DNA of 54,735 bases, filler included, from Jimgerdemannia flammicorona (taxonomy: Eukaryota): assembly GCA_003990765.1 (NCBI GenBank). It is 3 parts of 3 records of this genome, joined end to end, with 100 filler letters (N's around TTAATTAATTAA, not from the genome) between each part and the next. Parts side by side here need not be neighbours in the genome. Positions count along the whole stretch, not along the records: positions 36,562 to 54,735 come from RBNJ01002277.1; 2 more parts are not named here. The stretch is one strand, 5' to 3'. This document shows positions 9,599 to 53,212 of this stretch, piece by piece. The position numbers and the translations under genes were made by a program. Every line of letters starts with the position of its first letter. Positions within the stretch are counted from its first letter, which is position 1. Under the pieces are notes generated by a model. That model worked only from the letters and a program-made list of their open reading frames with translations, did no database searches and was not told the DNA's origin.

Positions 9599-9609
9599 TC
9601 AAAGAAATT

Positions 9610-15428: not shown

Positions 15429-15438
15429 ACTGCTACCA
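15429..15438 (-). promoter_or_regulatory. Primer-binding site, probably initiator tRNA-Met
   Basis: TGGTAGCAGT lies 3 nt after the 5' LTR end on minus. Confidence 0.75.
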
Positions 15439-15441
15439 AGT

Positions 15442-26785: not shown

Positions 26786-26824
26786 AGGATAGTCTGGGAC
26801 AGACTACCCTTTAGTGGGGGCTGA

Positions 26825-31000: not shown

Positions 31001-32150
31001 CCTGTTGACAGAGGTGGGCTCAGCTTGGTGGACTTTACCAAATGTCTTCATTGCCTGAGAGAATGGTGGCTGAAGAGGGCAAGTGAGTTGAGGGGCTAGG
31101 AATGGGTACTACTTATGCAGAGGGTGTGGAAAGCCCAGTATTTCCCTTGTGGAGCAACTGGCAATCTGCTTGCAATGGTGGCCCTGGATGGAAGAAGAAG
31201 GATGAGATATAAAGGCTTTTGGTGGAGAGTGGTGAATGGTGCAAGGAGAATTGGACTTCAGTGACAGAGTGATGAGGGAGAGGAGGACTGGGGACCACAG
31301 ATATGGAGATGGGCCAGACTACTACTGGGTGGTGTATTGGTGGAGGATTTCCAGCTTGGCAATGGAATGGAATATATGTGGGGTCTAGGGGGGGACCTGT
31401 GACCTGAAGCATGGCAGAGGGTGGGTATTGGCAAGGAGTGAGACTGGAATGGTCTTTGGCCTTGAAGCAAGCAGGTGATACGATGACTTCCCCCCAAGTT
31501 CTGGGTAATATGGTGGAGGTTTCTAAGGCAGAATGTGATACTGAACTATCAGTCTGGATACTTGGTAGTGGATGGCATGTTTGAGTGTGAGGAATGTATG
31601 GATGTTGGCCAGAAGGGGGGAGTGGTACAAATGCCTGAACATTGACTTAGTGAGTGTGAAGTCCTGGAGGAGTTTTGGTACCACATTGCAAACCAGTTAG
31701 GACTGCAGGCCCTAGTGAAGGGGGAAGGGGGGAGATGGGGGGACCTCTGCTGAAGGCTAGTGGGTGGGATTGGGGATGAATGGTTGACCTTGGGATGGGT
31801 TCTGGCAATTTGGATTGAGCTGGCTGGGCATTGGTTACATATATTCAAGGAGGGCTGGCAGGCTGAGGTTGGAGCTAGGGCGGTATGATGGGAATAGTTA
31901 GTACTTGACATTTTGAATAGCTGGTGGAGAGGGTGGGGACCAGGTGGGGGGAGCTGATGGAGTTTGGTGAATTGTATTTGTTGAAAAAGTGGAGGGAGGG
32001 TTCAGATAGTGAGTGACTGAGTTATCCTCCAACAGAGAGAGATAGAGGATAGAGAAAAGAATCTGAGGGGTATCATTTGAGGGGTTGGGGGTGAAATTGT
32101 ATTATTATTTATAGATTGAGATAATAAAGGGAAGTCCAAGTGACTATAAA

Positions 32151-32193
<43 letters not shown>
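28030..32193 (+). mobile_element. LINE-C (ORF1 3' end, ORF2 from 28418, poly-A tail), degenerate
   Basis: MNSTTRILSLNVN, GGDFNIV, GVPQGDPL and AFVDN motifs, poly-A at 32155-32193. Close relative of LINE-A. Confidence 0.93.
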
Positions 32194-32197
<4 letters not shown>

Positions 32198-35100
32198 TAA
32201 GATGAGACTGTGAGTACAGGGGCTGATATCTCAATACTGGATGGAGGGCAGCCAGTGACTCCTAGGGAGAAGGAGGTGGGAAATCTGCTATAGATATATA
32301 AGATAATGAACAACTTTGCAGTAGAGGAGTTAGGGGAGGTGGACCTGTAAGTGATGAGTGATGAGTATTGGGTATATAACCTACATGGCAAGAGAGTGGT
32401 GGAGGTATGGAAGGCAGAGATTCTTGTAGTTTTTCTGGGAGAGGAAGGGTATGAGGTTGATAAGGAGAGAGAGGCTGAGCTGGCAGTTGCTGCTAGTAAG
32501 AGGGCTGCTTTCTGTTGAGCAGAGTGGTATGGGTTGCAGCTCTGGCAGGAGGCCTGTCTGAAATATTATGAGGAATTCAAGGAGAAGGAGGATGGGGAGC
32601 TTACAGAACTTCTGGTTGGACTGGAGGCTAAGAGGACTAAAGAGGAGGAAGCTGTGGAACATGATCTGGACCTGGCTCAGAAGGAGATGAATATGGAGTA
32701 GTAGAGGATATGCTTGCTATTATACATTATTCCTTATGAACAGTACAATCAATATTTTTTCTTTAAATGTGAATGGATTATGGGGTTTGTTTCATTGACA
32801 GAATATTTTTGCTTGACTGAAGAGATTGGAGGCTGATCTCTTTCTTTTGCAGGATGTCAGGTGTGAGGATAATTTGGATAAACTAGAATAGACAAAGAAA
32901 TGGGGAGGGGAGGCAGTTTGGAAGGACAAGGTTGGGATTCTGGTCAGGAAGAGCAGAGGGGAGGTATGAGATGTGTAGAACTGGAGAGATAGGCTGGTTT
33001 GGGGAGAGTGAATTTGCACTGGTCAGGAATTAGTTATAGTGGAATCCTGCTACTATCCTGTAGTATGGGGTGAGTGTATAGAGTGGGTGAAGAGTCTTCT
33101 GGAGAGAGGGACTCTGGCAGAGACTGGAGTAGACATGCTTGGTAGGGACTTTAATATGATCAGAGATGCACTGTTGGATAGAACTGATGGAGGGCAGGGG
33201 GCAGAGGGTAGAAGTGGAGGGTTGGAAGCATAGGAGGAAGTAGAGAGGCTGAGTGCTTTGATGGATGCTGGCAGGAGGTATTGGGATAACAGAAGGGTAT
33301 ATATACATTGAGTGAGTGGTCTGGGGACAAGGATTGACTGGATTTTGACAGCAGACTGCTGAGGTCTGGATGTTTAGAGGTCACTGGAGGCTGAATGGTG
33401 TACATGATCTGATCATTGGAGATTTCTGAGACAGGGCCATTTTGGGAGGAGTGGGGATGGACTGGGACATTAGCACCTCAACTCCTCCCTGTTAGACAAT
33501 AAGGTACTATAGGACAAGTGAGCTGAGGATATTCAGCAGAGGGTGGAGGGGTGGATACAGGAAGGTGCCTCAGTTGGAGCTAGGTGAATGAGGTTGAAAG
33601 AGGCTGCTAGAGTCTATTGGAGAGAGGCAAGTAAGATGGCTGATAGATAGAGGAGGAAGAAGAGGTTGTGGGCCTCTGCTAGATTATCAAGGCTGTTGGA
33701 AGATTGGGCAGATCTGTTGGCCCTGGAGAGGGTGGAGGATTGGAGATTGTTACAGATAAAAAAGGAGGTTGTGGAGTTGCAACAGGTATTGTGGGAGGAG
33801 AAGAAAGTGCAGGTGCAGAGAATGGTGGTACATCTATATTGGCAGGGGCTGGAGGAAGGAGAGAGGCCCTCTAAGTTTCTCATGAGGGCTCTTTGAGCAA
33901 GGAGGGTTCAGCAGAGGTAGGAGGGGGTTCTCGATTCTGAGGGGCTATTGGTGCATAGTATATAAGATATTCTCAGGTCACTGAAGGAGAAGTGGAGTGG
34001 CTTGTGGAGTGAGAAGGAGGGTAGGGCTGAGGCTGCTGCCATTGATCTTATCTTGGAGGATTGGCACCCACTATAGGTAGAAGGGTTGGGCAATCTGGTG
34101 ATACTGGTGCAGGAGGAGAAGATTTGTTAGATTCTTGCCATGACTATACTGAGTACAGCACCAGAGGAGGATGGCATGCCCTGGGATTTCTGGAAGAAGA
34201 TGGTGGATGTCCCTGGTATACTGGGAGAGCTGAGGGCACTATGCGACTTAGTACTGCAATCTGAGAGATAGGTAGATGAGCAGGATCTGGGGCTGGTGGC
34301 ACTACTGTATAAGAATAAGAGTAGGAGGAAGGACTGAAAGAACTGGAGGCTGATCATGCTACTGGACATAGACAGGAAGTTGATTACTAAGATAGTAATA
34401 GTGAGGCTGCAGAAGGTGGCCCAATAGATCTTATGGGTAGAGCAGTGGGAATTTGTCAGGGGCCAACTCATTTGGGATAGCATGGCTTGGGTACATAGCA
34501 TTATTGAAGAGGCATAAGCCTGTAGACTGGATAGGCACCTGGTCTTCTTGGATTAAGAGAAGGTATATGACCATGTTTGGAGGGTCTGATTGACAAAGAT
34601 ACTAGATAGAATTGGCATCCCTCAACAGTTTTGAGCAGTAATGGTCAGCCTACTAAAAGGGAGCAGGGCTGCACTCATGTGTAATAGGTATAGAGGGGTG
34701 GCTTTCTCTCTGGGTAGGGGTGTTCCCCAGGGGGATCCACTGTCTTCCATTTTGTATATGCTCTCCTTGGAGCCCTTAATGGATAGGATTTGACAGAAGA
34801 CAGGAGGGCTTTCAGTATTTAGCATTGAGTGAAAAGTAGGTGCCTTTGCAGATGATATAGTGGTAGGCCTGGGCTCAATTACTGATGTTGTGAAACTAAA
34901 AGAGACCATGGAGTGGTATGAGGTGCACTCTGGGGCTAAACTCAATTAATATAAGTGTGAAATAATGATACTGGGTAATGGCCTGGTGGGGGGGGATGTC
35001 ATCAGAACAATTGTCTCTACTGAGGAGGCAGTGAGATACTTGGGCATCTATCTTTCAATATATGAGTCAGTTCTTCCAAAACTCTGGTGAGAGCAGTGGA

Positions 35101-36461
35101 TTATTATCTGGGGAGAGGTCCTGTGGAGCTGAAGAGGCCACCACTTATCTCTGGCAGGGCATGTTTCTATCTTGAATACTTACTGGCTGCTGAAGTTGTG
35201 GTATTTGGCTTATCATCTGGACTTCCTGGCCTGGGTGGTGAAGAGACTGTTGAAACTAGCCAAGGAGTGGATCTGGGCTGGGAGGAGGAGTCAGATCAGC
35301 TGAGAAATCTTATCCTTACTAGTAACTAGAGGGGGACTCAGACTGGTTGACTTCCCAAAGAGGTTGCACTGCCTGAGAGTATGGTGGCTGAAGAGAGCTG
35401 TTGAGCTAGGGGGTGGCAGCTGGGTTCCTCTGTTAGAAAAGGTCTGGGAGATAAGGTTTTCACTGAGAGGCTCTACTGGAGATCTTCTGTCCTTGGTTAG
35501 ACTTCAGAATAATAGGCACATGTGGTTTAAGGGCTTCTGGTGAGGAGTTGCTAATGGGGCACACTATATTGGCATTCATTTGCAGAGAGATAAGAGAGAA
35601 AGACCTTGGGGCCTAGCAATGTGGAGATGGGACTGAGTGTTGCTGGGGGGTATCTTCTTTGGTGACTTTGATATTAGTGATGGGGTTGAGTATCAGAGGG
35701 AGTTGGGGCAGGATCTGTGGCCCAGCAGATAGCAGTTAGTAGGTATCAGAGAGAAGAGTGAAACTGGAATAGAATCTGGACATGGAGTGCTGAGGTTTAG
35801 CAGTGGCTACCACCAAAGTATTGGGTAATCTGGTGGCACATGTTGAGGAGGAATATTATGCTCAACTTTTACTCTGGCCACCTGGTGGAAGGGGGGAACT
35901 TTGACTATAAGGAGTGCTACAATTTTGGGCAGGAAGGGGGCTTTGTACAGATGCCTAAACATTGGCTAGAGGAGTGCGAGGTATTCAGTGACTTCTGGAT
36001 AGTAGTTGGGAAGAGGTTGGGTATCATGTAGAGAGGGGATGGTATAAGGGATCAGTGGGAGGATTTGTGGGATAGATTGGTGGGAGAGGTTGGGAAGGAG
36101 TGGCTTACTTTGGAGTGAGTACTGGCTGTATGGGTGGGGTTAGTGGGTCACTGGTTATTTGTATTTGAGGATGTGAGACATCTGGGCTTGGGAGTATAAT
36201 AGTTACAATGAGAAGGATTGATGGAGGATACTTTGATAGACTGGTAGCATGGTTGGAGACTGCAGGATGGTTGGCGGCATCATTTGGTAGAGAGAATATG
36301 TGGACAAAGTAGAGAGAGAGTTGGGGTTGTGAGAGACAGAGTGATTTTCAAGTATAAAAGAGTTGGAGAGAGGGGGGGTTCCCCTATGGAGATTGGGTAG
36401 TAGGAGGAGATAATGTAATTTTATGTATAAACTAGTAATAAATGATATAGTCTAAGTGACT
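32194..36461 (+). mobile_element. LINE-D (ORF1 3' part, ORF2 from 32736, 3' end at the gap), degenerate
   Basis: MNSTINIFSLNVNGL, GVPQGDPLS and AFADD motifs; family 3' terminus AATAAA...AGTCTAAGTGACT before the gap. Confidence 0.92.
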
Positions 36462-36561
36462 NNNNNNNNNNNNNNNNNNNNNNNNNNNNNNNNNNNNNNN
36501 NNNNNTTAATTAATTAANNNNNNNNNNNNNNNNNNNNNNNNNNNNNNNNNNNNNNNNNNNN
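36462..36561. other. Assembly gap with artificial TTAATTAATTAA linker
   Basis: Same layout as 18184-18283. Confidence 0.97.
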
Positions 36562-37199
36562 AAGTAACTACAGATAGAGGAACCGAATTCGTGAACCAGT
36601 TCTTCGAAGTTCTCTACAAGAAGTACAAGATCCAGCACATTCGGACCACAGCCTATCACCCTCAAGGAAATGGACAAGTAGAAAGAACCAACAAGACCCT
36701 CAAGAATGTTATCGCCAAGATCTGTGATAACTACGAGAACTGGGATCACTATCTGCCAATAGCATTATCTGCTCTCCGGGATATCCAATCACAAAGCACC
36801 CACTTTACCCCTCGAGAAATGCTGTTCAGAGAAGAATGTTCTCAAGGAACCCTATCATCCAATGGAGAGGCCATATGAAAACATGTGGACATGGAAATAT
36901 GGAGACTACACCAAATCAGGAAGAAGGCTGAGGATTACATAACCAAGGTGCAGACACTATAATGGAGGAATGCAGAAAAGACCCATAAGCTCTTGGAGAT
37001 TATCAAGATAGGAGACAAGGTCCTAGTGTATCGGAATATGGTAGAAGCTTCATGGTCACGAAAACTGGAGCCCAAGTGGGAAGGACCTTACCTTGTGCAA
37101 GATATAAAAGGGACTACCTTTTGGCTACGAAAACCCTCAGGCACAATAATTCCCACCACCATTCACTGAAACCGACTCAAGAAATATCATGGCCAGTAA
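36562..37199 (+). pseudogene. Gypsy-3 integrase core and GPY/F module
   Basis: ORF 36591-36878 and its in-frame continuation through a few stops. Confidence 0.93.
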
Positions 37200-37650
37200 C
37201 AAAAGTACTGCAATGGCACTCAAGATCACTAGTGCTGCCCAAAGAGCCATCGAAAGACAATGGCACACCACCGAGCCTCCGACCATAGAGCCATTTTACG
37301 AGGATATTCAGAGTATTGTGCAGACTCATCTCTCTCGGATCTCGTACTTTAGAGCCTATCAATACCGAGCAGAATTCCAAGAGTACTTCAAGCTTGGACA
37401 GGTACTCAATCAGGATCCAGCAAAGACCAAGGAGGACTGGATTGCCGAGTGTCAACTCTCTCACTCACAGATCACTATTGCCAAAAGGATCCACAAGTTA
37501 TTCCAAGAAGATGAAGCAGCGATAGACCACCTGAGAGGAGTAACCCCTACCGACTTCGAGAAAGTGAGAAGACATCATTGGGAAACAGTTATGCAGCAAA
37601 TTGCACAGTACAAGACCATACAGACCGTTGAAGCCTGGGAGTTTGAATAG
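37189..37650 (+). CDS. Gypsy-3 ORF3, 153-aa unknown soluble helical protein
   Basis: Intact ATG-TAG ORF that overlaps the integrase stop and ends just before the PPT. Homologous to the LTR-embedded ORF of Gypsy-4. Confidence 0.8.
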   Translation: MASNKSTAMALKITSAAQRAIERQWHTTEPPTIEPFYEDIQSIVQTHLSRISYFRAYQYRAEFQEYFKLGQVLNQDPAKTKEDWIAECQLSHSQITIAKRIHKLFQEDEAAIDHLRGVTPTDFEKVRRHHWETVMQQIAQYKTIQTVEAWEFE

Positions 37651-37687: not shown

Positions 37688-38162
37688 TGTGATGGTACAG
37701 CCAGATTTGGAAGAAGGAAATAGGGAATAGAAACTTGATCACACCCATTCCCAAAGTAGTATAGCATTATAGTTAGCAGTCCTCGATTTCGACATTGTCT
37801 AATTTCTTAGACATTGTTTAAATTTTAGACATTATCCAAATCAAATACCCTGATTTAGTATAGCATTTAGACATTGTCCAAATGTTTCGACAAAGTCCAA
37901 ATGACTCATTTATTACTTAGCCACCCTCTCATAGCTAGCAAACTTGTATAAATAACCCAGTATCTTCGAGTGAATAAACCTCAGATCGAAATAGTTCAAA
38001 GCAAAGAGATAGCAAAGGAACTAGTAAGCCTGTGGGCAGATACACTTCGAACTCACCCACCCTCCCCTGCCACTTCAAGAGACTCTGCGAGAGTCAGAAC
38101 AGTCAAGTTTCAAGATACAGAAATCCGATGTACTTTCAAGAGTAAGTGTCCGCTACGTTACA
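37688..38162 (+). repeat. Gypsy-3 3' LTR
   Basis: TG...CA ends, short repeats TTAGACATTGTCCAAAT (37790-37900), TATA at about 37946 and AATAAA at about 37973. Confidence 0.85.
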
Positions 38163-40564
38163 ATAGATGTAATATATCAGGCTTAGTTCCACTCTATAAT
38201 TTTTTAGAAGTAAGATCATCATCTCTGGAATACTTGTTATTGCCAGAATTCTTACTCAGTGCTTGAGAAATATATCAATTATAGATATATACCACTGTAT
38301 TGATAGCTTCAGCCCAATAAGAATATAATAATCCTACTATATTAATCATTGTTCAAGCCATTTTAACAATCATATATATAGTTAAATTACTCAGTTATAT
38401 CATTTTGCTAGCATATATAGAGAGCTATCATTTGATGAAATATGTATGCTATATTTTCTCAGGAACTATCTGAATGTAATGTTGATATATTTACATTCAT
38501 TATCTAATTATATAGTATGTACTCTACATCCTGTCTTATTCTCAATAATTACTTTAAATTCTTTGAATTTTTCTAAGACTTCACTCATTACTAATAAGAA
38601 ATATATATATACTTTATACATATAATCATTAATGATATATGTTGGATACATCAGATATAGTTATTATATATATAGAGGCTTTTATACTATTTAGCATCTC
38701 ATTGATTATATAAAGATTACTATATTTTGAGACTATTATTAGCTTATTATTATGTAAATCATATACTATTATACTCTTTACAAATATATATATCTCTTTA
38801 TTGCTATATGATATTATCTTTTCCATCAAAAAGAGGTTTTTGCTGATTTCTGAAATATATAGTATATCTAGGAAAGTATCAGTAGATTCTATGATATTAC
38901 CATAGAGATATTATCCTGATATTTCTCTTTCCTTAAGTATAGATAATGTTGTTGTCTTCTAGTTTGATAGATATAGAGTATTTGAAAGGCTCATATGTAT
39001 ATAGAAAACCATTATCTATGTGGCATTATATATTATATGGCTCCAGAATCTATTGGTCAGATATTATTATTATTGGCTATATATATTTGTAGTAAATTCA
39101 TTGCTAGTAGTGCTTATATTATTGCTACTTTTTGTTAAGTAAAAAGTATTTTGCTGATCAGGATTCATAGATAATGAGATGGTGGATTTGATAGTAAAAT
39201 TGTAATCTATATATATTATTTGTATAAAGAATATATGTATTACTACTTTTATCAGTTTTAGTAATATTTGTATTATCATGCTTTTCTTTACCTTAATAAG
39301 TCTTTCCACTACCTTGACATTACTAATGCTAACCTCTATATTGTTGCTTATGATTTTCACCACTCTTCTTATCATTTTTCCAGTAATAACAATTGTACTT
39401 TCTGTATCTATACTTACTATAGTACTCACAGTAACTAATATACTTAGATCATTAAATAGACTAATTGTTATTATATTGATTTTGGGTTTGAATTTATTGA
39501 TCTTATTATTGTCCATACTTTTGATCTCATTTGATGCTACCACTATATCTACAGAACTTGTAAAAAGTATTTTTGCCATTATTACTACCATTTCCTTAGT
39601 ATATTTCCTCATTTATGAGACTTGTTAATATGTAGATATAGTCTATGAGTTTGTCACTCTTCTATATAGTCACTACTATGATATGATATATTTTACAAGA
39701 TTTCTTATAAGAGCTAAGACCTTGTCTTCATCACTTATACACTATACTGATATATTTAAAGAATTCACCTGATTTATCAGATTATCAATATAACTGATAT
39801 ATTCATAAATAGTCTTCTTGGGCTTTATTTATAAATTAAATAACTAAGATTTTAGATTGAATTGATTTGATGTAGATATTTATATAATAATTATATAGAG
39901 TCTTTTATATCTTATAAGTGATCATTATATTTATTATGAGCTTTGTTTGGAAGTTTGATAATATGAATATAATCTCTTATAAATATAATGGTCATTTGTA
40001 ATATTGTAATCTTGAATCAGTACTTGTGGCTTTATATACTCTGCTAAGTTACATTTATCAAGTAGATTTACTATATGAAATATCTAGATCATATAATATT
40101 TTCTGTTGAAGATTGAGATGGACCTCCTGGCTGTATTTATACTTAATAACTGAGACTATATTTCCTGTATCTGTTATAGTAATTATATCTATAGTATTAA
40201 TGGAGACTTGCAGATTAGTATATCTATTTTCATACTTACATTACAAGGCTAGTTGTTTGATATTTCTAGTATAGTATATTTAAAGAAGTGTATTGATATA
40301 CTATAGCTACTTAGCACTAGTAGGACTCATAACCTTTATTGTAAAGAGAGAGACATTTTTATTAAAGTTATATAGATTGCATATTTCACATATGTATTAC
40401 TAATAAATAATATAAAATTAATAGAATAGCATAATCATATATTGATATATTGAGTTGCTATCCCAATATATCTAAATGAAATAGATATAAGACTACTAGT
40501 ATTTTATAGATATATATATCTCTAATGAGTTAATTATTATCTTTTTTGATAATTTTGAGCAATA
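38163..40564 (-). mobile_element. Heavily decayed Ty1/Copia element (5' LTR, gag, protease, integrase)
   Basis: Minus strand: PBS-like GGTTATGAGTCC at about 40323-40334, *PIDSGA protease at about 39040-39060, integrase FKEFKVIIENKTGCRVHTI*LDNECKY and GLLYSYWAE. IN follows PR directly, as in Copia. Confidence 0.8.
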
Positions 40565-40659
40565 TACTACTATAAGAACTCTAACAGCAGTATAGTAAAT
40601 AGCTCTTATATCATTTAGTCTCTAAGAACTAGCAAGCTATATTTATAACTATAAATCAT

Positions 40660-41250
40660 ATTGGAAATAATGATGCTATAATCCTGATAGAACAGAAGGC
40701 CTGATTGCAAACCACCTATTATATTGATAAAATCAAATAGACTCTGAAAGACCAACTTAATATCATCTGGTAAGGAATAAATAAAGTTCCAAATACCTTT
40801 TATATATATCTGAAACCACTATTAGATAATCTTAGCCAACTATATTAATGTTATTAGAGATCAAGTAGCTGAAGTAATCTTTATGAAAGGAATTTACCTA
40901 GAGATAGTTATAGCAATCTGATGAATATCAATAGTTCTGAACTTAGTACAGAAGATAACTTATACTCAGTGATATTAAATAGCCAGATACTTTCAAGACT
41001 ATATAATGGAGAGAGTCACTAGAGTTAGGGTTAAAATATCTAAAGTAATTAGTATAATTTTCTCAACTATAGTCAATTGAAACATATCTCAACCAAAGAC
41101 TACAGAGTAATATAAGTATAGTAATCTTATAGAGAAACTTATCAAAAATTTTGCTAAAATAACTATATATCTGGAAGTTATAGTAAAAAAAATCAAAAGG
41201 AGAATTGCCTAGTTTAGAAGTTTGTAGCCACAATTTCTTAGGCTATAATA
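40660..41250 (+). pseudogene. Gypsy-5 gag fragment (old relative of Gypsy-4)
   Basis: LKDQLNII and VIFMKGIYLEI match Gypsy-4 gag LKDQLNTI and SIFLKGVHPEI. Confidence 0.75.
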
Positions 41251-41384
41251 TAGGTAAATTTGCCTGTAAAAAAAAATAATATATAATTTTTATTTAAAAA
41301 AAATATTTTACTAATTAAAATTTTTTTTCAAAAAAAGATTTTTTTTATACTTTTATTAATAAATATAAGATTAAATATATATAT

Positions 41385-42871
41385 TGTTATGTAGTGGTCG
41401 CTGAGTTCTTTAAATATACCAGATTCTCTTCAAGGTATATATCTTAGACTAACTCAAGTTTGTTATAAGCAAGTTCTTATTGGAGTACCTTCCCAAGGTC
41501 TTATAGTCCTCAAACTTCTTATTTTTAAACTATCTTATTATCTCTTAGATTGCTTATAAGAAAGTGTGTGTATTGCACTGAGAGGAACTGATTTTATTTC
41601 AGAGAAAATAAGTGGGGTATTTATACAAAATATAATTCAATGGTTGCTAAGATATAGAACTAAATATAAATTCCAATAACTAAAACTACTAAGTTCCAGG
41701 GTCAGTACTGGTGGTTGTACAGGTTCAGGATGCTGGTATAATTCAGTATCATATCAGAATACCAGTGCTGGAAAAATTTCATGTTACCTTAGAATACCAG
41801 TGCTGACATTATTCAGTGTAACAAAGAACTTAGAGCAGAAAGTTCAGGATCATAGAGGCTTCATCATCATCATCATCATCATCACTGAAGGAGATGAGAT
41901 CTGCAAATTTGTTGTTTTCATATACTTCAATATCACACAGGATGATGTCATCACTGATGATATCATCATGTTTGGCAGTGGGGAAGTCAGGGGCTCTCCA
42001 ATCTATGAGGTTCTCTTCCACAAAGTAAGGAACAAATGTGGGGTCTTGGGGAGGTCTAACCTGGATGTTTGGGCCTTAGAATACTGAGATCAATCCTTGT
42101 AGGAATTGGTCTGGGTTGTCCTGAAGAATGGGATACCAGAAGTCTTCTACTTTGTCACTATTGAGAGTAATAGTGGACTGGGCTTCTGTAGCCACCCTGG
42201 CTTCTAGTGCATTGATACAGCAGATGATAGGTCTCTGAAATCTGAGACTCTAACATACTCTAAGTTGGGGATTGACCATGGTGCATACCTGAAGATCTGG
42301 TGAATCTTCTTAGCTATTCTTGTCTCACATATATCCATGGGAGTAACATCTTATAACTCTTGAGGGCTGGCCTGTGGGAACTCTTGGCAGAGGAGGTTTT
42401 CTATTTCATACTCCTGCTATATTTGGAGGCATTCAGTAGTAATGGTGATCCTTGTTTCCATTTTGCGGCAGTAGAGGATAAAGTAATAGAGATCTGCACT
42501 ACCCAGGTTGATACTGAGAGTCCTTCTTGAGTGGGTCCTCATGGCTCTTCTGATGTCTTGGAACATCCTTTCCTCAACTGAGATGCCTTGGTGATTCCTT
42601 AACCTTGAGGTTTAGCAAGCAGCAGGCATTTTGTTTGTGGTAAGTCTTTGAACTATTTTGGAATTAGTAGTTCTTGTTGGTTGCTGCTACTGCAGTTCCT
42701 TGATCCTTCTTTTATATTCTTCAGAATGCTTGTACTGTAGTCACAATGACTCATAGTTGGTCATCATTGCTCATCTCATATGCCATATGATCTTCTTGTA
42801 CTCTGATCTGGTAACTTGTGAGAAAAGGCTGTCTCCTGTGCTGATGTCATCATTCTGATGTCACTGTTACA
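41385..42871 (-). repeat. Gypsy-4 3' LTR
   Basis: Direct repeat of 48542-50053. Confidence 0.93.
41830..42629 (-). pseudogene. LTR-embedded ORF (ORF3 family), 3' LTR copy
   Basis: MPAA...TRIAKKIHQIFRYAPWSIPNLEYVRVSDFR...DDDDDDDEASMILNFLL*; 800 nt with one 1-bp deletion. Confidence 0.75.
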
Positions 42872-43189
42872 TCTTCCTCCTGAATAAGGATCTCCTTGAG
42901 CATTCTTATTCATTGGTCCAGTCCTGAAAAATTTGCTGATCCTATAACCTCTGGCAAGGGGTCAAAAAGTAGTATTTATGGGCTGGCATCTTCCCTTTAT
43001 ATTTTGGCAAGATGGTGAAGAGTCACTCCCTTCATATAGAGTAAGGGCCTGATTCTGATCTTGATCAATCAGTTGATGGTTCAAACTCCTCTGACTTCAA
43101 AAGTCTCATGGATAAGTAGTTACCAGTACTGTATTCCTTAGAGAATAGTCCAGACAGATAGCCTGCTGGTTATGGGACATGCTGTTATG

Positions 43190-45880
43190 ATTTGCAGACT
43201 AGAACCTCACAGGTGGTCTTCACATTTTGCTTCTCTTATATAGGTTTGTGGTACTTCTTGAGTCCATTCCTATGTACCGTGGTAGGCAGTATGGTCTCTG
43301 AGATTTTTCTAAGCCAGAAGGTGGTTCTCTTGATATTTTGCATATAGAAGAGTCCTTCCCATTTGGGCTCTAGTTTTCATGACCATGAGGCTTCTACCAT
43401 ATTTTGATACAGTAGAACCTTTTCTCCAATTCAGATGGGTTCTAAGGCCTTGTGATTCTTTTCTGCATTCTTCCTTATCAGTGCTTGTAACTTGGTGATA
43501 TAATCTTCAGCCTTCTTTCTGATTTGGTGTAGTCTCCGGATTCCTGCATCAACCTGTCTCCAAGTTAGGTCTAGATTTATGACTGAGGTTCCATCAGAAT
43601 CTTCTTCTCTGAAGAGCAACTCTCTTGGAGTAAAGTGTGTGCTCTGTGACCATATGTCTCATAGGACAGAGAGAGTGGTTGGGAGATAGTTATCCCAATT
43701 CTCATATGTCTCTGATATCTTTACTAGGATGTTCTTGAGAGTCTTGTTGGTTCTTTCTCTCTGTCCATTTCCTTGAGGGTGGTATACAGTGGTCTTGATG
43801 TACTGGATCTTGTATTTCTGATATATTATCTTATAGAATCCATTGACAAATTCTGTTCCACAGTCTATTGTGATTTGCTTTGGTGTCTTGTAGCAGCAGA
43901 TAATTTCTCAGTACAGGAAGTCAGCTATAGAGAGGGCATTGGCTTCTTATAATACTCCTGCCTCTATCCATTTGGTGAAGAGGTCTATAATAACTATAAT
44001 ATAGTAGTTTTCTGATAGTGTTACTGGTAGTGGTCTAATGATATCTATTGTGATGTAGTGGAAGGGGATAGGCTCAATTCTTGATGACTTGGGTACCTGG
44101 TCTTACTGATCTTATTTCTGTTTTTGGTACTTGTTACACCCTTTGACAAATTGGCACAGGTCTTCTTCTATCTTGGGCCACCACATGGTTCTTCTTGCCT
44201 TATTGTATGTGTTGGTTCCTCCTAAGTATCCTCATTTGTATACTTCCTTCATTACTTGATACTTCTTGTGTTTGGGTATTACTAGCTTTTCTCCTTTTCT
44301 GAGTATAGTGTTGTCTAGTTTAAACTGTTTCCAAGTCCAGTTGATGATGGTGATTGTTCAGGGTTCAAGGTGGTTGGACATCTTCTGCTGCCCAAGATAG
44401 CTGATTAATCCATAGTATAGCTCCTTATTCATGTTGAATAGTCTTGATGGGGTGTTCCGGGGTATCCATAAGAGTGCATTGGTATTGGTGTTGGTCTTTT
44501 CTGAGTGGTGCTTAACAGTACAGTCATACTCTTGCAGCCTGTAGATCTATCTGACATATATTCCTTTGGGGTTCAGAGTGTGAAATAGCCAGACAAGAGC
44601 AGAGTGATCTGTTTGAATGATGAAGTATTTCCTGGCTAGGTAGTATTGGAACTTGTCTACTGCCCAAACTACTGCTAAGCATTCAAGCTTGTATGACTTG
44701 TAGTTCTATTCTGCTCTGTGGGTACCTTGGCTTGCATAAGAGATGACATATTCATGTCCATCTTTCTTCTGAGCTAGGACTGCTCCAAGTTCTATAGCAC
44801 TTGTATCTGTCTGCAAGATGAATTCTAGATTCCAATCTAGTCTTCTGAGGATAGGTGCTTGGGTCAATCTGGTCTTGAGTTCATTGAAAGTTTCTTGGTG
44901 CTCCTTGGTCTATTCGAATTTGGTTTCCTTTTTCAGTAGCTCATAGATAGGTGCTGTAATGTTCGAGTATCCTTTGATAAATCTTCTATAGTAGCTGGCC
45001 AGTTCAAGGAAGGCATGGACTTTTGTGATTGTCCTGGGTCTTGGGTAGACTGCAACAGCCTTGATCTTCATGAGGTCTGTGTGGATTCTGGTCTGGTTGA
45101 TAAGGTGTCCTAGGTAGGCGATTTCCTGAGCTACAAACTTGTATTTCTTAGGCTTGATGTAGAGGCCATACTCCTTGAGCTTCTTGAGAATTAGCTGTAT
45201 GTGATTGACATATTTCTGTATAGTATTGCTGAAGATGATCACATCATCAATATAGACAAAGAGCCATTTTCCAATCTTGTTGCTAAAGACTCTGTTCATC
45301 ATTTACTAAAAACTTGCTGGGATATTGCACATTCCAAATGGCATTTGCAGATAGATATAGGTGGTGTCAGATGTGATGAAGGCTGATTTCTCACTGGCAT
45401 CTTGAGTGAGACCAATCTGATGGAAGCCTGAGAACAGATCCAAGGTGGTGTAATATTTGGCTTTGCTTCTAAGGGTGGTAAGAATCTCTTGAATATTTGG
45501 CAAGGGCTGTCTATCCTTCTTGATAATAGCATTGAGCTTCCTGTAGTTAATGTAGAGTCTTAGTGCAAACTCTCCAGGCTTGCTTCCTTTCTTTGAGGCA
45601 AGGACAATAAGTGAGGCCCAGGGGCTGATAGCTTGCTTGATGATTCCAGCTTCTTCCATTTCCTTGAGTTCTGCTTGCAGCCATTCTCTATAGACAGATG
45701 GTATGGGTCTGGCTTTCTGGTAGATGGGCTTGGTATCACCAGTGTCAACTTCATGGTAGTACTTGGGTTCTTGATTGTAGATATCTCTGAAGTCAGTAGC
45801 AAGTACTCCTTCATTCTGATACAGGATCTTGAGAAGTTGTTCCTCTAGGGGAAAGTTTTCTCCAATGGTATATGTGTACT
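43190..45880 (-). pseudogene. Gypsy-4 RT, RNase H and integrase
   Basis: SPWAS, NYRKLN, TTLDLFSGFHQI, MPFGMCN, VYIDDVII, YYRRFIKGYS, YHPQGNGQ, KWEGL. Confidence 0.96.
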
Positions 45881-45939
45881 TATTCTGGTCCTTGTCTTTC
45901 TTGTGCTCAAGTTCGGTAATCTTGGTAGTGACATAGGCT

Positions 45940-46340
45940 CCTCTTCCAGTAGATCCAAAGCCTTGTTCTCCTCTCTTGGTCTTGATGAGTTTGATGGCTT
46001 CAATGATTTTGGGCTTCTTGACTTCGTGGATCAGCATCTGGCCAATCCTGTCATGCTTCTTGACCTTGAAGGGGGTGGTGTGGTTGTGATTTCTGACTAT
46101 GAGAAAGATCTTGCCAGTGTAATCAGGGTCAATTACTCCTCCTTTAACTGAGATTTTGCTTTTTGCCAGACTGCTCCGGCTCTTGATAATTCCAGCATAG
46201 TTCTCTGGCAGCTTGACTCCAATTCCAGTGCCAAGTAGGGTGGTGGTCTGTGGTTTGAGGGTAGTATCTTGAATACTGACAAGGTCCATTTCTATGGCTT
46301 CTTTGGTCTTGTATTCTGGGATCTTGACTTTAGGGTGAAA
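45940..46340 (-). pseudogene. Trimeric dUTPase domain of Gypsy-4, in frame with RT
   Basis: In ORF 45306-46289: KSRSSLA, GGVIDPDYTG, DRIGQML, RGEQGFGSTG. Confidence 0.96.
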
Positions 46341-46699
46341 CTTCTTGATCTTGAGGGTGATGTCAGATTCTTATTCCTCCTCATCATCACTGTCAGCCTA
46401 AAGCTCTGGGGGCTGGTTATCTTCTTTGGCTTTCCTTTTTACTTCAGTGGCTTCTTGCTCATATTTCTGTTGGTGGATTTTCCTAACTTCACTGATATAG
46501 GACCAGCAGTCATACAGGTGTTCAGAGCAGTACATCCTAGTACCATGGAGGCATCTTCCTTGAGAGGCATAGCCATCAATAATCTTGTTGTACCACTGCT
46601 CATCTGTGAGCTTAGGTGTCTTGTTCTTGTTCTTGTTCACTGAGTGCATGAAGACTTCTGTGTCCTCTTCATCTCCTTCCTCTATGTCTGGTAGAACTC

Positions 46700-47080
46700 C
46701 TTTGTGGATATTGATAGAGACTTGTACCTTTCTTCCTCTATAGTTGATCTGTATCTTCTGGGTATTGAGGTTAATGATGGCCTTGGTCTTGTGAAGCTAT
46801 TGGTTGCTAATGAGGATGTCATAGTTGGTGGTGCTTGTAATAATCACATCTACTGGGATGATAGCTCCTCCTATCTTGATGGGGACTTCTTGGATTTTGC
46901 CAAGGGGGGTAGCTCATGTACTATCTGCTGTAACATAGACCATCTTGGTGGACTCTTCAATGTCCCAACCTAGGCAGTCAATTTTCTTCTTGCTCATGAG
47001 ACATCCTCCAGCACTGGTATTAATGATGGTATCAAAGATATAGTCTTCAATCTGACATAGGGTATAGGCTGATATCTTGC
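46700..47080 (-). pseudogene. Gypsy-4 aspartic protease
   Basis: TIINTSAGGCLMS, which is IIDTGA altered by G->A transitions. Confidence 0.8.
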
Positions 47081-47399
47081 ACTGGTCTTTGGATTCTTTA
47101 CCTGAGTTCTCAGATTCTTCCTGTATATTGTGAGCTTCTACAATCTTATACTCTTGATTCTTGGCAGTAGTTGTAAGGCCTACTCTCAACTGCTGTCTAA
47201 AGGTAGGGACTTCAGCTAGTTGTCCAAAAGTAGCATTGACCTTCTGTTTCTTGAAGTCCTTGTAGATATCATACAAGTGGATCTTGGTCTTGTGCAGCTT
47301 CTGTTCCTTCTTGCTTTTGCTTTCTTCTGAGACTGAAGTAGTGTCTTCAATGATTTGGCAGACAGCTTCATCTAACTCCATATCTTGATCAATCTCCTC

Positions 47400-48421
47400 A
47401 GGTTGGGTCTTGCTTTGAATAGTAACACCTGGGGTCTTCTTTGGTCTTCCAACTGGCTTGCTGTTACTCTTCCTGTCATAGGGCTTAGACTGGGTTCTAG
47501 TGCCTTCAGTAGCAGGGTAGAATTCGAGCTCCTCATAGTATTCTTTATCATCAGTATCACTAATCTCCTCAATGACTACTACATTGGTTTGTTCTCTGGT
47601 TCTGCTAGCATTGTTTGGTTGGGCTTTGTATAGTGGCCTTCTTCTCTACATCTGAAGTATGTGATATTGCATTCTTCTGTAGCAGCTGCAAATCTCTGTA
47701 CTGGTCTCCTGTTGGCACTTCAGACTTCTCTAACAACATTACCAAGATGTGTAGTTATCTTTGCAAACTGCTTGGCAAGTTCTTCCACTGGGTCAGCTTT
47801 GGCTGTTTTGGGGGTAGGTGGGGTTGGTTGTCTGTTTACAACTGTGGCAGATATGATACTAGTTGGCTTTGATGGCTCCATCTTGATACCAGTTATCTTC
47901 TCCATTGAGTGTTTGGCAGGGTGTCTGGCAGTCCAATATCTCTGTGCAAAGACCACTTTCTGATCAAGAGTCAGTGTGGCTAGAGTAGACCAGATTGCTA
48001 GGGCAATTTCAGGGTGAACTCCTTTGAGAAAGATTGAATCTGCTATTTGTTCCTTGAGACAGTCATCATAGCCAGCCAAGATAATCTGGTAGCAGATTCA
48101 GATATAGAATGATTTGAGATCTTCACTAAGTCCCTGGCAGATAGTATTGAGTTGATCCTTGAGAGCTTGCTTGATCTTTTTGATATAATATGTTGTTCTG
48201 AGGAAGGCCTTCATGTTGGCAAGTTTGGCTGCACCAACATCAGCAATGGTAGCTACATTGAACTTGTCTCTGGCAGATCCTCTGAGACTGACTGGTAGAA
48301 GGGCCAATTGAGCATCTACACCAAGGGCTCATATGGCAGCGAATTGTTCAAAGTCTTCAATGAAGATCAGAATTGACTCTTCAGTAGTATATCCATAGAA
48401 TGTGGGGGGGTGCATTTCCAT
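47400..48421 (-). pseudogene. Gypsy-4 gag
   Basis: MEMHPPTFYG..., SLRGSARDKF, IFLKGVHP and a degenerate knuckle (C>Y)FRCREEGHY. Confidence 0.85.
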
Positions 48422-49021
48422 CTTGTCTTAAATTCTTATAGGGATGACTCTTGTAGTCAGGGTAGTTGTTGTGGGGGTTATTCATTTTTCAGCTTGAAAG
48501 TGAGGGATTCGTCTTGAATCACTAGCCAATGAGCACTAAGTTGTCATGTAGTGGTTGCTGAGTCCTTCAAATATACCAGATTCTCTTCAAGGTATATCTC
48601 TTAGACTAACTCAAGTTTGTTATAAGCAAGTTCTTATTGGAGTACCTTCCCAAGGTCTTATAGTCCTCAAACTTCTTATCTTTAAACTGTCTTGTTATCT
48701 CTTAGATTGCTTTCAAGGAAGTATATGTATTGTACTGAGAGGAACTGATTTTATTTCAGAGAAAATAAGAGGAATATTTATATAAAATATAATTCAATAG
48801 TTGCTAAGATATAGAGCTAAATATAAATTTCAATAACTAAAACTACTAAGTTCCAGGGTTGATACTAATGGTTGTATAGGTTCAAGATGCTGGTAGAATT
48901 CAGTATCACATCAGAATATCAGTGCTGGAACAATTTCATGTTATCTCAGAATACCAGTGCTGGCATTATCCAGTGTTATATTAAAATACTAGTACTGGCA
49001 TTATTCAGTGTAACAAAGAAC

Positions 49022-49811
49022 TTAGAGCAGAAAGTTCAGGATTATAGGGGCTTCATCATTATCATCATCATCATTACTGAAGAAGATGAGATCTGCAAAT
49101 TCATCATTTTTGTGTGCTTTGATGTTGTACAGGATGATGTCATCATCAATGACATTATCACATTTGGTGGCAGAGAAGTTGGGGGCTCTCCAATCTATGA
49201 GGTTCTCTTCCACAAAGTAAGGAACAAATGTGGGGTCTTGGGGAGGTCTAATCTGGATGCTTGGGCCTTAGAATACTGCGATCAATCCTTGCAGAAATTG
49301 GTCTGGGTTGTCCTGAAGGATGAGATGCCAGAAGTCTTCTACTTCATCACTATTAAGGGTGATAGTGGACTGGGCTTCTGTAGCCACTCTGGCTTCTAGT
49401 GCATTATTATGGTGGGATGACAGATATCTGAAATCTGAGACTCTAACATACTCCAAGTTGGGGATTGACTATGGTACTCTGGTGGATCTTCTTAGCTATT
49501 CTTGTCTCATATATATCCATGGGAGTAGCATCTTGTAGCTCTTGGGGGCTGGCCTGTGGGAACTCCTGGTAGAGGAGGTTTCTTATTTCATACTCCTGCC
49601 ACATTTGGAGGTATTCAGTAGCAATAGTGATCCTTGTTTCCATTTTACAGCAGTAGAGGATAAAGTGATAGGGATCTGTAGTACCCAGGTTGATACTGGG
49701 AGTCCTTTTTGAGTGGGTCCTCATGGCTCTTCTGATGTCTTGGAACATTCTTTTCTCAACTGAGATGCCTTGGTAATTCCTTGACCTTGAGGTTTGGCAG
49801 GCAGCAGGCAT
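49022..49811 (-). pseudogene. LTR-embedded ORF (ORF3 family), 5' LTR copy
   Basis: ORF pieces 49443-49811, 49268-49456 and 49022-49213 join into one frame after repairing an 11-bp deletion and one stop. Confidence 0.75.
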
Positions 49812-49891
49812 TTTGTTTATAGTAAGTTTTTGAGCTATTTTGGGATTGGTGGTTCTTGTTGGTTACTGCTACTGTAGTTTCTTGATTCTTC

Positions 49892-49898
49892 TTTTATA
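49892..49898 (-). promoter_or_regulatory. TATA box in the Gypsy-4 LTR (second copy at 42710-42716)
   Basis: TATAAAA is present in both LTRs, about 80 nt upstream of the A-rich AACAAAATG start. Confidence 0.6.
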
Positions 49899-50101
49899 TT
49901 CTTCAGAATACTTGTACTGTGGTCACAATGACTCACAGTTGGTCATCATTGCTCATCTCATATATCATATGATCTCCTTGTGCTCTGATCTGGTGGCTTG
50001 TGAGAAAAGGTTGTCTCCTGTACTGATGTCATCATTCTGAAGTCACCATTACAATATATATAATAATAAAAAGTTTAAAATTTTACAAGCAAATTTGTCT
50101 G

Positions 50102-52425
50102 CAAAAATATAGAATCTATTAACTATAAATAAGAGAGAAATCTGCTATACTTATAGAGAAGAAGGCTACTACTTCTACAAAATGTATGAGTAATATCAAG
50201 TATAATATTCAGCTAAGAAATACTATTAGAAACTATGAACAGACCAATACCATTATTTTCAAAGAGATTGAAGATTTAGAGGAAGAGTAAGAATGAGAAG
50301 CTTATCTTACTCTTATCTCTAAAAAGGATATCTATAAGAAACTCTATAAGAGATCACTGAAAAGACCCAAGAATAATTCAGTAGAATAGTCTCTAGAAGA
50401 ATAAATAGAAGTATCTATAGAAAGTAAAACTACAGCCAAAGAATTAGATCAAGATATAGAACTCAAATAAGTAGTCAAGAATATTATCTGAGACAATACT
50501 TTTGCTAATAAATGAGAGAAAAAGAAGTTACAAAAGAGTAAGATCTTTAAGTATAATATTGAGTCAGCAAAAAGTCATTGCAATCTTTGGATAATTGGCA
50601 GAAATTCCCATTTTCAGATAATAAATAAGACTGAAAAATACAGAAACAGTCAAGAATCAAGAATGGAAGATAGTAGAGATTGATAATATATAGAAAGACT
50701 CTATCAAAGAGTGTGAAGAAGATAACTACAAGATCTCTATCTATGCTATCTACTATATTAAGGACAGAATTCTTGAAGCCATCATTGATATAAAAGTAGA
50801 AAAATGTCTCCTCAGCAATAAAGCTATAGACTGCCTAAATTGGAAAATTGAAAAAAGTTATAAAATTAGTATTTATTATAGCAAATAGTACAGGAACTAT
50901 CCCTTTTGAGATATCTCTATTAAGTTTGAAGGAGCAATCATCCCAGTAAATATGATCATTACAAATACTACTAACTATAATATTCTTATTAGCAACTAGT
51001 GGCTTCACAAGGCCAAGGCTATAATTGATATAAATTTTCAAAAGATACAGATTGTCTACTGAGAATAAAAGATGTAAATTCTAATTAATGTTAACAAAGA
51101 AGTACTCTCTGAGATAGAGAAAGAAGTTAGTAAGCAAGAAGAATTCTATATTATAACTACTCAAAAAAAGAAGAAAAAGGTCAGATAGATCAGTAAAGAA
51201 GATTAGTATAAGAAGATTACTAAAGGATATACTCTATAAGGAATCTGTCCTTATAGAATTCAGATATACTATATAAAGTATATAGTTGAGTACTTCTAAT
51301 ACATTATTAAGATCTATAAAATTCATTATAAAGAAAAGAAAGAAGACAAAAGCATTAAGAAAAGAAAGCCCAGGAGGATGAACCACTAGCCCTTTTAGAA
51401 AATAGTAATAATAAAGAAAAAATTAAGACCAAAATTTAGAGGATTTAGTCCTGTTAGAATATAAGTCAGAAAATACAGCTAAAATGGATATTATTATAGT
51501 TAAAGAGACAGTTCTTGAACTATAGACAACTGCTCTACTTACAACTAACCTAGAGATGACTATTTCTAAGAACTATATCAGAATACTCAAGACAAAGAGT
51601 AGTCTAGCCAAGAGTGAAATTTCAATTGAAGGAGAAGTTATCAAATTCTGATTATATTGGAAAAATTCTACTTATTGTCAGAAATCACAACTCCACAATT
51701 CCATTTGTAGTTAAGAAGAAGAACTGACTCATACAAATACTGATCTTTCCAGTACTATAACCCAAGATCTTGAAAGTAAAGAAGCTAGAGAAAACAGAAA
51801 GAGGAAGAGAAGAAGTTAGATCTATAGGAAGAGAAGTTTTTATTAGTCAATATTACCAAACAGACCACAAGAAGGAGAAAATTATAGACAAGTATAGCTA
51901 TACTATTAGAAATGAATTTCTATTCAAAAAAGAACTCAGAAAACTATTGTATAAATTTGAAGATATTCTTATTACTGATTTTAAGAATATTAAAGAAAAG
52001 ATACTATACTACTATTATGATATGTATGGATATAGAAGACCTTAAGCCAATCTATCAAAGAGTAAGACCAATCCCACTAGTATATTGTAAATAGCTCAGA
52101 GAAGATATCAAGTAGATGGAGAAAGCTAGCATTACCAAGAAGATCATTAGTCCATAGTTCTCACCAATTATATTAATTCTGAAGAAAGAAAGAAAGCTAG
52201 AAAAATTCACCCCAAGACTCTATACAGACTATAGAAAACTCAATAAAGTTATCAAGAAGGATTACCTACTACTCCTTATTAGTGATATTCTAATAATACT
52301 AGAAAATAAAGTATAATACTATTCTATTTTAGATTTATACTCAGAATTCAATCAAATTGGTCTCACCAGAGAAGTCAGTAAAAAGTCATCCTTTATTACT
52401 CCAGATAGAACCTATGTCTATTATT
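50102..52425 (+). pseudogene. Gypsy-5 continuation: gag end, protease, dUTPase (about 51460-51830) and start of RT, very AT-drifted
   Basis: Collinear with Gypsy-4: AIID.., KSSLAKSEISIEG, KPIYQRVRPIP, DYRKLN, LDLYSEFNQIG. Confidence 0.82.
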
Positions 52426-52607: not shown

Positions 52608-53212
52608 TAGTGCTCTGAACAAGTCAATCCGGATGGGATTCGGATGGATTCGAATCCCATCCGGATCAACTCGGATTGGATTCGAATCCCATCTGGATGG
52701 ATTTGAATCAACCATTGTTTTGATTTCCAAATTGGACAATTAAATGTTTACATCAATAACTCAATGAATAATCATCCAAATTTGATGATCTTGGTGTCAT
52801 TTGAAAGCCCTTAATAAGGCCTTTCTAATGATATCAAGAAAACATTAAAATCAGATTGCAAGTTGCCGAGATATTAAAGAAAACATTCTATTTGACGAAA
52901 TTTCCAAAATCGGCAAATCGAAGAATTTCCAAAATCGGCGATTCAGACGGTTTCCTTCATAACTCAGCAACGTATGTTCGGATTTCAATGTTCTTGATAT
53001 TATTAGATAGGCCTTATTAAGGGCTTTCAAATGACACCAAGATCATTAAATTTGGATGATTATTCATTGAGTTATTGATGTAAACATTTAATTATCTAAT
53101 TTGGAAATCAAAACAATGGTTGATTCGAATCCCATCTGAGTTGATTTGGATGGGATTCAATCCGAATCAATCCGAATCCAATCTGGATTAAATTGACTTG
53201 TTAGGAGCACTA
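52608..53212. mobile_element. Foldback MITE-like element, about 605 bp, with long inverted repeats
   Basis: Termini TAGTGCTC.../...GAGCACTA. About 52700-52875 is a near-perfect reverse complement of about 52960-53130. Subterminal GGAT/ATCC 5-mers; CpG retained. Confidence 0.85.

Follow-up and report, generated by a model that had tools for sequence, protein, structure and literature searches.

A conserved accessory gene, decayed in both copies, within the long terminal repeats of a Ty3/Gypsy element of Jimgerdemannia flammicorona

Long terminal repeats (LTRs) are usually regarded as control regions devoid of coding function, and solo LTRs as a coding-dead residue of elements. A layout in which a gene lies within the LTR is known from a few retroviruses, namely MMTV sag and parts of nef and bel, and is unusual for Gypsy elements. 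The sag product is a membrane glycoprotein, and in foamy viruses the internal promoter is located in env, with only part of the bel region overlapping U3. According to excerpts of the corresponding reports, MMTV encodes Sag in U3, which makes up the bulk of its long LTR (PMC12548423), and the foamy virus transactivator Tas is needed for both the LTR and the internal promoters (PMC8670036). In plants, the excerpted text of a review describes the additional ORFs of LTR retrotransposons (Grande gene23, Retand, RIRE2) as conserved, family-specific and of unknown function, with Grande gene23 possessing its own promoter and encoding a nuclear protein (PMC7264820). Similarly, the Gypsy-like elements of bdelloid rotifers and basidiomycetes are described, in excerpts of the source, as harboring a dUTPase in pol and diverse, family-specific ORF3s after pol, and these ORF3s typically constitute separate transcription units (PMC5408684). 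A full-text literature search, covering main texts and few subscription journals, retrieved no description of a protein-coding gene in a Ty3/Gypsy LTR, an absence that constitutes weak evidence.

Here we analyze a stretch of 54,735 nt of DNA from J. flammicorona (assembly GCA_003990765.1), hereafter the window, in which a first-pass annotation had reported a gene embedded in both LTRs of an element designated Gypsy-4. The overall explanation that we consider probable is that of a dead Ty3/Gypsy element carrying in its LTRs a pseudogenised, real accessory gene of ~266 codons, positioned in U3 and encoding what we guess to be a regulator.

The Gypsy-4 element and the interrupted frames in its LTRs

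Gypsy-4 occupies positions 41384-50053 on the minus strand and presents LTRs of ~1.5 kb. Alignment of both repeats with blastn and MAFFT delimits a 5' LTR of 1513 bp (48541..50053, minus strand; TGTAAT...GACAA) and a 3' LTR of 1488 bp (41384..42871, minus strand), with 87.5-91.7% identity between them and TG..CA termini (TGTAA..ACAA). The sequence ATATA is found at both outer flanks (50054-50058 and 41379-41383), but these flanks both consist of (AT)n, so that a target-site duplication is only weakly informative. The polypurine tract AGGAGGAAGA (42872..42881, minus strand) abuts the 3' LTR. The nearest TGG lies 12 nt past the 5' LTR, with no clear TGG-type primer-binding site directly adjoining the repeat and no tRNA match, and Rfam and tRNA scans across the window returned no matches. 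The internal region (42872..48540, minus strand) is decayed and encompasses gag, protease, dUTPase, RT, RNase H and integrase. Pfam detects dUTPase, RVT_1 and RT_RNaseH in one frame, and tblastn locates gag at 48031-47633 and integrase at 44231-43611 (queries P0021 and P0024), with RT/RH at 45755-44445. The repeat pair, the polypurine tract and the domain order, with integrase last (gag-PR-dUTPase-RT-RNase H-IN), therefore identify Gypsy-4 as a Ty3/Gypsy element. Its closest relative in a pol search is a single protein with 85% identity, the second-best reaching 39%. The two LTRs are separated by 138 transitions versus 10 transversions, chiefly at CpA/TpG and former CpG sites, and the observed/expected ratio of CpG is 0.03-0.06 across the element. 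The insertion is old, complete but dead.

Both LTRs contain the reported gene as a pseudogene on the minus strand. The 5' copy (49022..49811) spans 790 nt, with an 11-bp gap after position 49479, and the 3' copy (41830..42629) spans 800 nt, with a 1-bp gap near position 42222. In both copies, the start context AACAAAATG leads into the ATG (49811 and 42629, respectively) and the frame closes with a terminal TAA (49022-49024 and 41830-41832). The ORF lies 240 nt into the LTR, and a further 240 nt separate its end from a conserved TATAAATA/AATAAA module. An acidic tail follows the core ...TRIAKKIHQIF...IPNLEYVRVSDF in its translation. The LTR alignment and the translation thus bear out the first-pass description of a TATAAAA box, AACAAAATG, gapped 790- and 800-nt frames inside the two LTRs, and a core followed by an acidic tail.

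The accompanying claim that the element had a single open frame when it inserted does not stand. At codon 185 (of 266), both copies read TAA in frame (49268-49270 and 42076-42078), and each contains further stops and an indel. The TAG at 49469-49471 is private to the 5' copy, and TAA (42612-42614), TAG (42417-42419) and TAA (42351-42353) are private to the 3' copy. Changes from CpA to TpA affect 16 of 136 sites per LTR copy, and the expected number of Gln codons struck in parallel is only 0.24; it is therefore likely, if not certain, that Gypsy-4 already had the shared stop at codon 185 at the time of insertion. If so, Gypsy-4 inserted with a nonsense-mutated gene, and the LTR gene is not required in cis for transposition. 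The dN/dS ratio between the two LTR copies is 0.43, versus 0.48 ± 0.13 in neutral simulations with the same substitution spectrum. The divergence between copies is hence neutral, as expected for post-insertion decay, and uninformative on function.

A rare gene family with a counterpart in Gypsy-3

Searches with the C-terminal piece of the LTR protein identified relatives at E ≤ 0.01 among 6 of the 17 scored candidates, with identities of 60-74%. Five of these six relatives are colinear to the C-terminus and share the same LNFLL or LNILL end. A profile search against 1.84 billion representatives resolved the family into five clusters at 50% identity, a number that argues for a family that is real but rare. 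At the DNA level, the gene was located in 1 of 92 candidate stretches in metagenome contigs, and in none of 91 candidate stretches in viral contigs and none of 217 in genome contigs. This metagenome locus (L001) encodes an intact version of 323 codons in the standard code, behind the same TATA box. Its sequence begins at the TATA box with GAATATAAAAG, followed by the start context ACAAACAAATG at position 69, and presents 68% DNA identity with Gypsy-4 over the ORF. The start MP[AP] is kept in four lineages.

Comparison of the two window copies with L001 yields in-frame dN/dS values of 0.176 (245 codons) and 0.163 (241 codons), versus 1.03-1.55 for the other two frames of the same alignment; dS is saturated in this comparison, which makes the ratios approximate, and the frame-specific contrast is clear. 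These results show that the LTR frame is, as had been proposed at first pass, a genuine and conserved accessory gene under purifying selection, which we place beyond chance because intact relatives exist and because in-frame dN/dS is low relative to the other frames.

The opposite reading, in which the frame is open by chance because the sequence is poor in T, or is open only in a ciliate-type code, retains a negligible probability. The coding strand of the LTR gene is indeed poor in T (24%) and in G (18%), and pol is open over 851 codons under table 6, which reads TAA/TAG as Gln (8 TAA/TAG, no TGA). We rejected the ciliate-type code on the grounds that relatives are intact under the standard code. 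The predicted proteins P0001, P0007, P0011 and P0020 are uninterrupted in that code, and the Gypsy-3 ORF3 discussed below is open for 153 codons up to a TAG stop that falls exactly at the end point of P0011 and P0016, and is thus conserved as the ORF3 stop. The shared TAA of the LTR gene aligns with Q in 6 of 9 relatives and with E in the remaining 3, 6 of 8 relatives have W opposite the TAG of the 5' copy, and wherever a stop is private to one LTR copy, its counterpart is a Q or W codon. This pattern argues for the standard code, and the surplus of TAA and TAG fits the expected product of C-to-T decay at CpA and TpG. The relatives, with their conserved start and end, the intact ORF of L001 and the frame-specific dN/dS refute the non-gene reading.

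The Gypsy-3 element, on the plus strand of the window, contains an accessory ORF of its own. Its ORF3 (37189..37650, plus strand) comprises 153 codons, is intact in the standard code, ends in TAG and is located between integrase and polypurine tract, outside the LTR. A TATAAAA box (37103..37109, plus strand), part of ATATAAAAG, lies 86 nt upstream of ORF3 within the C-terminal codons of integrase (..QDIKG..), the end of which reads ..GPYLVQDIKGTTFWLRK..TTIH. Downstream, the polypurine tract AGGAGGAAG, near-identical to the AGGAGGAAGA of Gypsy-4, precedes a 3' LTR of ~476 bp without ORF (37688..38163, plus strand), which starts with TGTGATGG and ends in ..CGTTACAA; its boundaries are drawn from termini resembling those of Gypsy-4, the 5' LTR lying outside the window. 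This LTR contains repeated TTAGACATTGT motifs, followed by TATAAATA (37947) and AATAAA (37973).

Similarity between ORF3, for which we identified 9 relatives among 14 candidates, and the LTR gene had been asserted from the outset, and it stands at the profile level only. Single-sequence comparisons are not significant (tblastn E 0.08 with 22% identity; hhalign probability 20%). Profile-profile comparison with hhalign (A4 vs A3), in contrast, returns a probability of 91.2% and an E value of 9.9e-7 over 114 columns, pairing residues 15-150 of the LTR protein with residues 28-141 of ORF3. In hmmsearch against the six frames of the window, the LTR-gene profile recovers ORF3 at E 4.8e-6, and the reciprocal search with the ORF3 profile recovers the 3' LTR copy at E 0.007 and the 5' copy only at E 4.1. 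Both profiles are shallow (Neff about 2), and with that reservation we accept the N-terminal ~135 residues of the LTR protein as homologous to ORF3, in agreement with the common domain proposed earlier. The C-terminal half of the LTR protein (~130 residues), to which belong the conserved FQGP..PQDPT.VPYFVEEN.IDWR block, the acidic tail and the terminal LNFLL, is without counterpart in ORF3.

The two elements differ in where they hold these genes. In Gypsy-3, the integrase stop is followed by ORF3, AGGAGGAAG and TGTGATGG. In Gypsy-4, integrase is followed by 377 nt, AGGAGGAAGA, TGTAAC and 150 nt, and then by a cassette of TATA box, leader and ORF. The polypurine tract and LTR start are thus conserved, with the TATA-plus-ORF cassette falling on different sides of them. 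The integrase ends of the two elements share 75-76% DNA identity (75% over 581 nt), up to the exact base at which ORF3 starts, in contrast to accessory proteins that are only about 18-28% identical and of which one has an extra C-terminal half. This disparity therefore marks ORF3 and the LTR gene as old paralogues exchanged in modular fashion, as opposed to the outcome of a recent hop. The 377 nt between integrase and polypurine tract in Gypsy-4 yielded no ORF3 remnant, since 33 of 500 shuffles match the local score and nothing is detected at the protein level. Likewise, comparisons of the 5' part of the Gypsy-4 LTR with the integrase end of Gypsy-3, the internal 3' end of Gypsy-4 and the Gypsy-3 LTR produced scores within those of shuffles. 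The original formulation, according to which the accessory gene moved into the LTR, is correct in locating the gene inside both LTRs and oversimplified in view of the age of the two paralogues.

The LTR position could instead be an accident of a single dead copy, arising for instance from recombination or template switching in one round of reverse transcription and not heritable. One full element with this arrangement was seen, and its gene probably had a stop codon at insertion, both of which are compatible with such a chimera. L001, at 68% DNA identity, nonetheless presents the same order of TATA box, ORF and TATAAATA/AATAAA, with no intervening polypurine tract or LTR start, and the LTR-type gene with its C-terminal half forms five diverged clusters under selection. 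We consequently regard a one-off event as improbable. A transduced host gene, captured by the elements without a role in their life, is more improbable still. Excerpts of a review report gene capture by LTR elements as known (PMC7264820), and Pfam offers no family assignment for the LTR gene. Against this origin, all three DNA contexts observed are retroelements (Gypsy-3, Gypsy-4 and L001), two paralogous forms occur in related elements, and no longer or cellular relative was found among the 1.84 billion representatives.

Putative promoter modules and the probable position of the gene in the LTR

The upstream TATA box of the LTR gene (TATAAAA; 49892..49898, minus strand) is situated 87 nt before the ATG, and its equivalent in the 3' copy maps to 42710-42716. 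The surrounding ATATAAAAG is invariant in the four sequences aligned (alignment A5), which comprise the 5' and 3' LTRs of Gypsy-4, L001 and the region upstream of Gypsy-3 ORF3, and its distance to the ATG ranges from 65 to 87 nt. The conservation of TATAAAA at this distance upholds the earlier view that the gene has a TATA box of its own, which presumably acts as its promoter. Directly after the stop codon of the LTR gene, TRF identifies a 35-bp tandem repeat with 3.3 copies (48898..49011, minus strand), which has one unit fewer in the 3' LTR and may be enhancer-like.

A second module is found ~240 nt downstream of the gene (48750..48782, minus strand), consisting of TATAAATA (48775-48782) and AATAAA (48750-48755), with its 3' copy at 41593-41625. 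The same module, with a spacing of 26-27 nt, is present in Gypsy-3 (37947-37978) and in L001 (1219-1250), and in the latter the polypurine tract and the LTR start are absent between the ORF and the module. Since TATAAATA is the sole TATA module of the short Gypsy-3 LTR, the TATAAATA-AATAAA pair is the likelier main promoter and poly(A) signal, and probably marks the U3/R junction. Under these motif-based boundaries the LTR gene would lie in U3, a placement that we favor with reasonable confidence over a layout with the gene in R as first cistron.

It is this last layout that the first-pass annotation had advanced in calling the gene the first cistron, and we find it unlikely. In that layout the upstream TATA box is the main promoter, R starts ~30 nt after it and, spanning the gene, continues for ~1.1 kb as far as the poly(A) site, and the gene is present at both ends of the RNA. 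The conservation of the TATA box and leader agrees with this arrangement. Poly(A) signals of the yeast type have two parts, an efficiency element and a positioning element, and the succession of TGTATAAATA and AATAAA could be such a signal, in which case the gene would be placed in R. However, the Gypsy-3 LTR lacks both the cassette and its TATA box, and contains only the TATAAATA module. The upstream TATA box of Gypsy-3 is embedded in integrase codons, outside the LTR, which indicates that this box accompanies the gene, as opposed to the LTR. Moreover, the constant spacing of 26-27 nt between TATA and AATAAA, common to three lineages, is what a start site located at the hexamer would require, and 1.1 kb would be an exceptional length for R. 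The conserved downstream module thus remains the likelier U3/R junction, with the gene putatively in U3.

The encoded protein, a proposed mechanism and comparison with known systems

The LTR protein has a basic N-terminus and an acidic C-terminal half, with a net charge of -4 to -9 per 20 residues. The acidic tail contains embedded I, L, F and W residues and ends in LNFLL. Acidic C-terminal regions are a feature typical of activators. A first structural model reached a pLDDT of 45.5, with a best VIA Z of 6.5 against generic helices. In a second model, built from 16 sequences for the core, a segment of ~100 residues is predicted to be helical at pLDDT 73-87, with an overall pLDDT of 67.9. Foldseek searches with this core model returned no fold match (best E 1.3 against PDB and 0.45 against BFVD). 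Sequence-based searches were equally negative: Pfam identified no family for the LTR gene at E ≤ 0.01 in pieces of the window and none credible at E ≤ 1 in 9 relatives, a PDB sequence profile search with the LTR gene returned nothing at E ≤ 1, and the best score in an atlas search with P0001 was 0.86, under the 0.9 line. Comparison of the LTR protein with the gag-pol of the element (hhalign, A4 vs P0021, gag-PR-dUTPase-RT-RH) yielded a probability of 0.1%, which speaks against a Gag/Pol-derived protein. Motif scans on the LTR protein are permissive. From composition and position, our best guess, made with low confidence, is that the protein acts in the nucleus to regulate expression of the element itself, either as a transactivator or as an anti-silencing factor; an adaptor for RNA export or packaging, a guess on the same basis, ranks second and is somewhat less likely.

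The arrangement described above suggests a mechanism. The cassette of TATA box, short leader and ORF lies 150 nt inside the LTR, and reverse transcription therefore copies it to both ends of each new insertion. With the gene in U3, the poly(A) hexamer would be positioned at the transcription start and be active only in the 3' LTR, R would be short, and genomic RNA would carry the ORF only at its 3' end, in the 3' U3, as in the case of MMTV sag. The upstream TATA box could in turn drive an mRNA of ~1.1 kb ending at the poly(A) signal of the same LTR. Each LTR, including solo LTRs, would then constitute a self-contained unit of TATA box, ORF, 35-bp repeats and poly(A) signal, and the protein might act back on U3 in a two-promoter circuit resembling that of foamy virus Tas. 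The earlier expectation that even solo LTRs would spread promoter and gene together agrees with the location of TATA box, leader and ORF, all inside the LTR. The gene was observed in both LTRs of one full element (Gypsy-4), the L001 sequence being cut at the TATA box. The stronger proposition, that every LTR is an autonomous TATA-ORF-poly(A) gene for a trans-acting family regulator, such as a feed-forward activator akin to Tas or a factor that counters silencing, is conceivable though doubtful. If true, each element would contain at least two copies of the helper gene, which would persist after recombination between LTRs had removed gag-pol, outnumbering and outliving the elements it serves. 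For annotators, the implication is that ORFs within long LTRs should not be dismissed. Gypsy-3, with its accessory gene before the polypurine tract, and Gypsy-4, with the gene inside the LTR, provide a natural pair for testing the effect of accessory-gene position.

Among described systems, the additional ORFs of plant LTR retrotransposons are, in the excerpted review, located in the internal region, past pol but before the 3' LTR, often in antisense, whereas the Gypsy-4 gene is in sense orientation and inside the LTR; that text of the review contains no mention of ORFs inside an LTR (PMC7264820). The excerpted report on rotifer and basidiomycete elements likewise places no ORF3 in an LTR (PMC5408684), and these ORF3s have no homology to the LTR gene. 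The foamy virus Tas/Bet system, as far as excerpts describe it (PMC8670036), resembles Gypsy-4 in possessing a second promoter inside the element for 3' accessory genes, akin to the candidate promoter of the LTR gene, but Tas and Bet are not homologous to the LTR gene, and an activator role for the LTR protein is putative. MMTV sag, on the evidence of the portions cited (PMC12548423), is similar to the Gypsy-4 gene in being a protein gene in U3, a position deduced from motifs for Gypsy-4, and hence occurs in each of the two LTRs as well as in solo LTRs. The LTR gene has no sequence or Pfam similarity to sag. In contrast to MMTV, Gypsy-4 is a Ty3/Gypsy element without env and its LTR gene has a conserved TATA box directly upstream, and, unlike Sag, the acidic, helical product shows no features of a membrane glycoprotein. 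If borne out, a selected U3 gene in a Ty3/Gypsy element would extend to retrotransposons the layout of retroviral sag and of parts of nef and bel, and would imply that solo LTRs can stay protein-coding. The LTR gene is thus sag-like in position and foamy-like in its dedicated, putative promoter, and a member of neither family.

Probable cytosine deamination and the insertion target of Gypsy-4

The transposon sequences in the window are nearly free of CpG dinucleotides, with observed/expected ratios of 0.00-0.06 across positions 6001-16000, 20001-36000 and 40001-52000. Comparison of the two LTRs of Gypsy-4, the old, decayed minus-strand Ty3/Gypsy element at 41384-50053, revealed 138 transitions and 10 transversions, and most of these changes affect CpA/TpG sites or paired TG/CA sites. 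Together, the near absence of CpG and the dominance of transitions between the LTRs point to a host with a strong cytosine-deamination process, which would be either methylation-driven or RIP-like.

The surroundings of Gypsy-4 are AT-rich, with a GC content of 26-28% (50721-52421 (+) and 38001-42000). A long palindrome of 441 bp, 84% identical to its own reverse complement, lies at 52696-53136. In tblastn searches, the AT-rich DNA adjoining Gypsy-4 matched P0021, a relative protein with gag, PR, dUTPase, RT and RH, with E-values of 1e-18 to 1e-21. This apparent background is thus a Gypsy relic in an advanced state of decay, and the target of Gypsy-4 insertion was transposon DNA that was older and more decayed.

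dUTPase domains in the Gypsy elements

The pol of Gypsy-4, at 44358-46913 (-), contains a dUTPase domain (Pfam E-value 8e-27), and the sole close relative, the protein P0020, carries the source name dUTPase. In another Gypsy element, at 21153-25208 (+), the dUTPase again sits between protease and RT. Searches with profiles of the Gypsy-4 LTR gene and its Gypsy-3 homolog, ORF3, identified no clear ORF3-like gene downstream of this element, the best match (26235-26867) having an E-value of 0.46. N runs of 44 bases each occur in two pairs, at 18184-18283 and 36462-36561, the latter within the Gypsy-3 integrase.

LINE-like copies and a three-copy repeat

Two LINE-like copies with RVT_1 and Exo_endo_phos domains, at 1199-4180 (-) and 28046-31968 (+), share 74% identity. 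Their coding strand has a strong excess of G over C, being rich in G and poor in C, with a GC skew of ~0.45-0.5. A 1.1-1.5-kb repeat is present in three copies (10566-12058, 15442-16951 and 5749-6854), two direct and one inverted, that are 86-88% identical. Because part of the translated sequence (..KPRQEGPYLIHQ..) resembles an integrase C-terminus, this repeat is not a plain LTR pair, and the three copies may constitute a tandem or recombined array.
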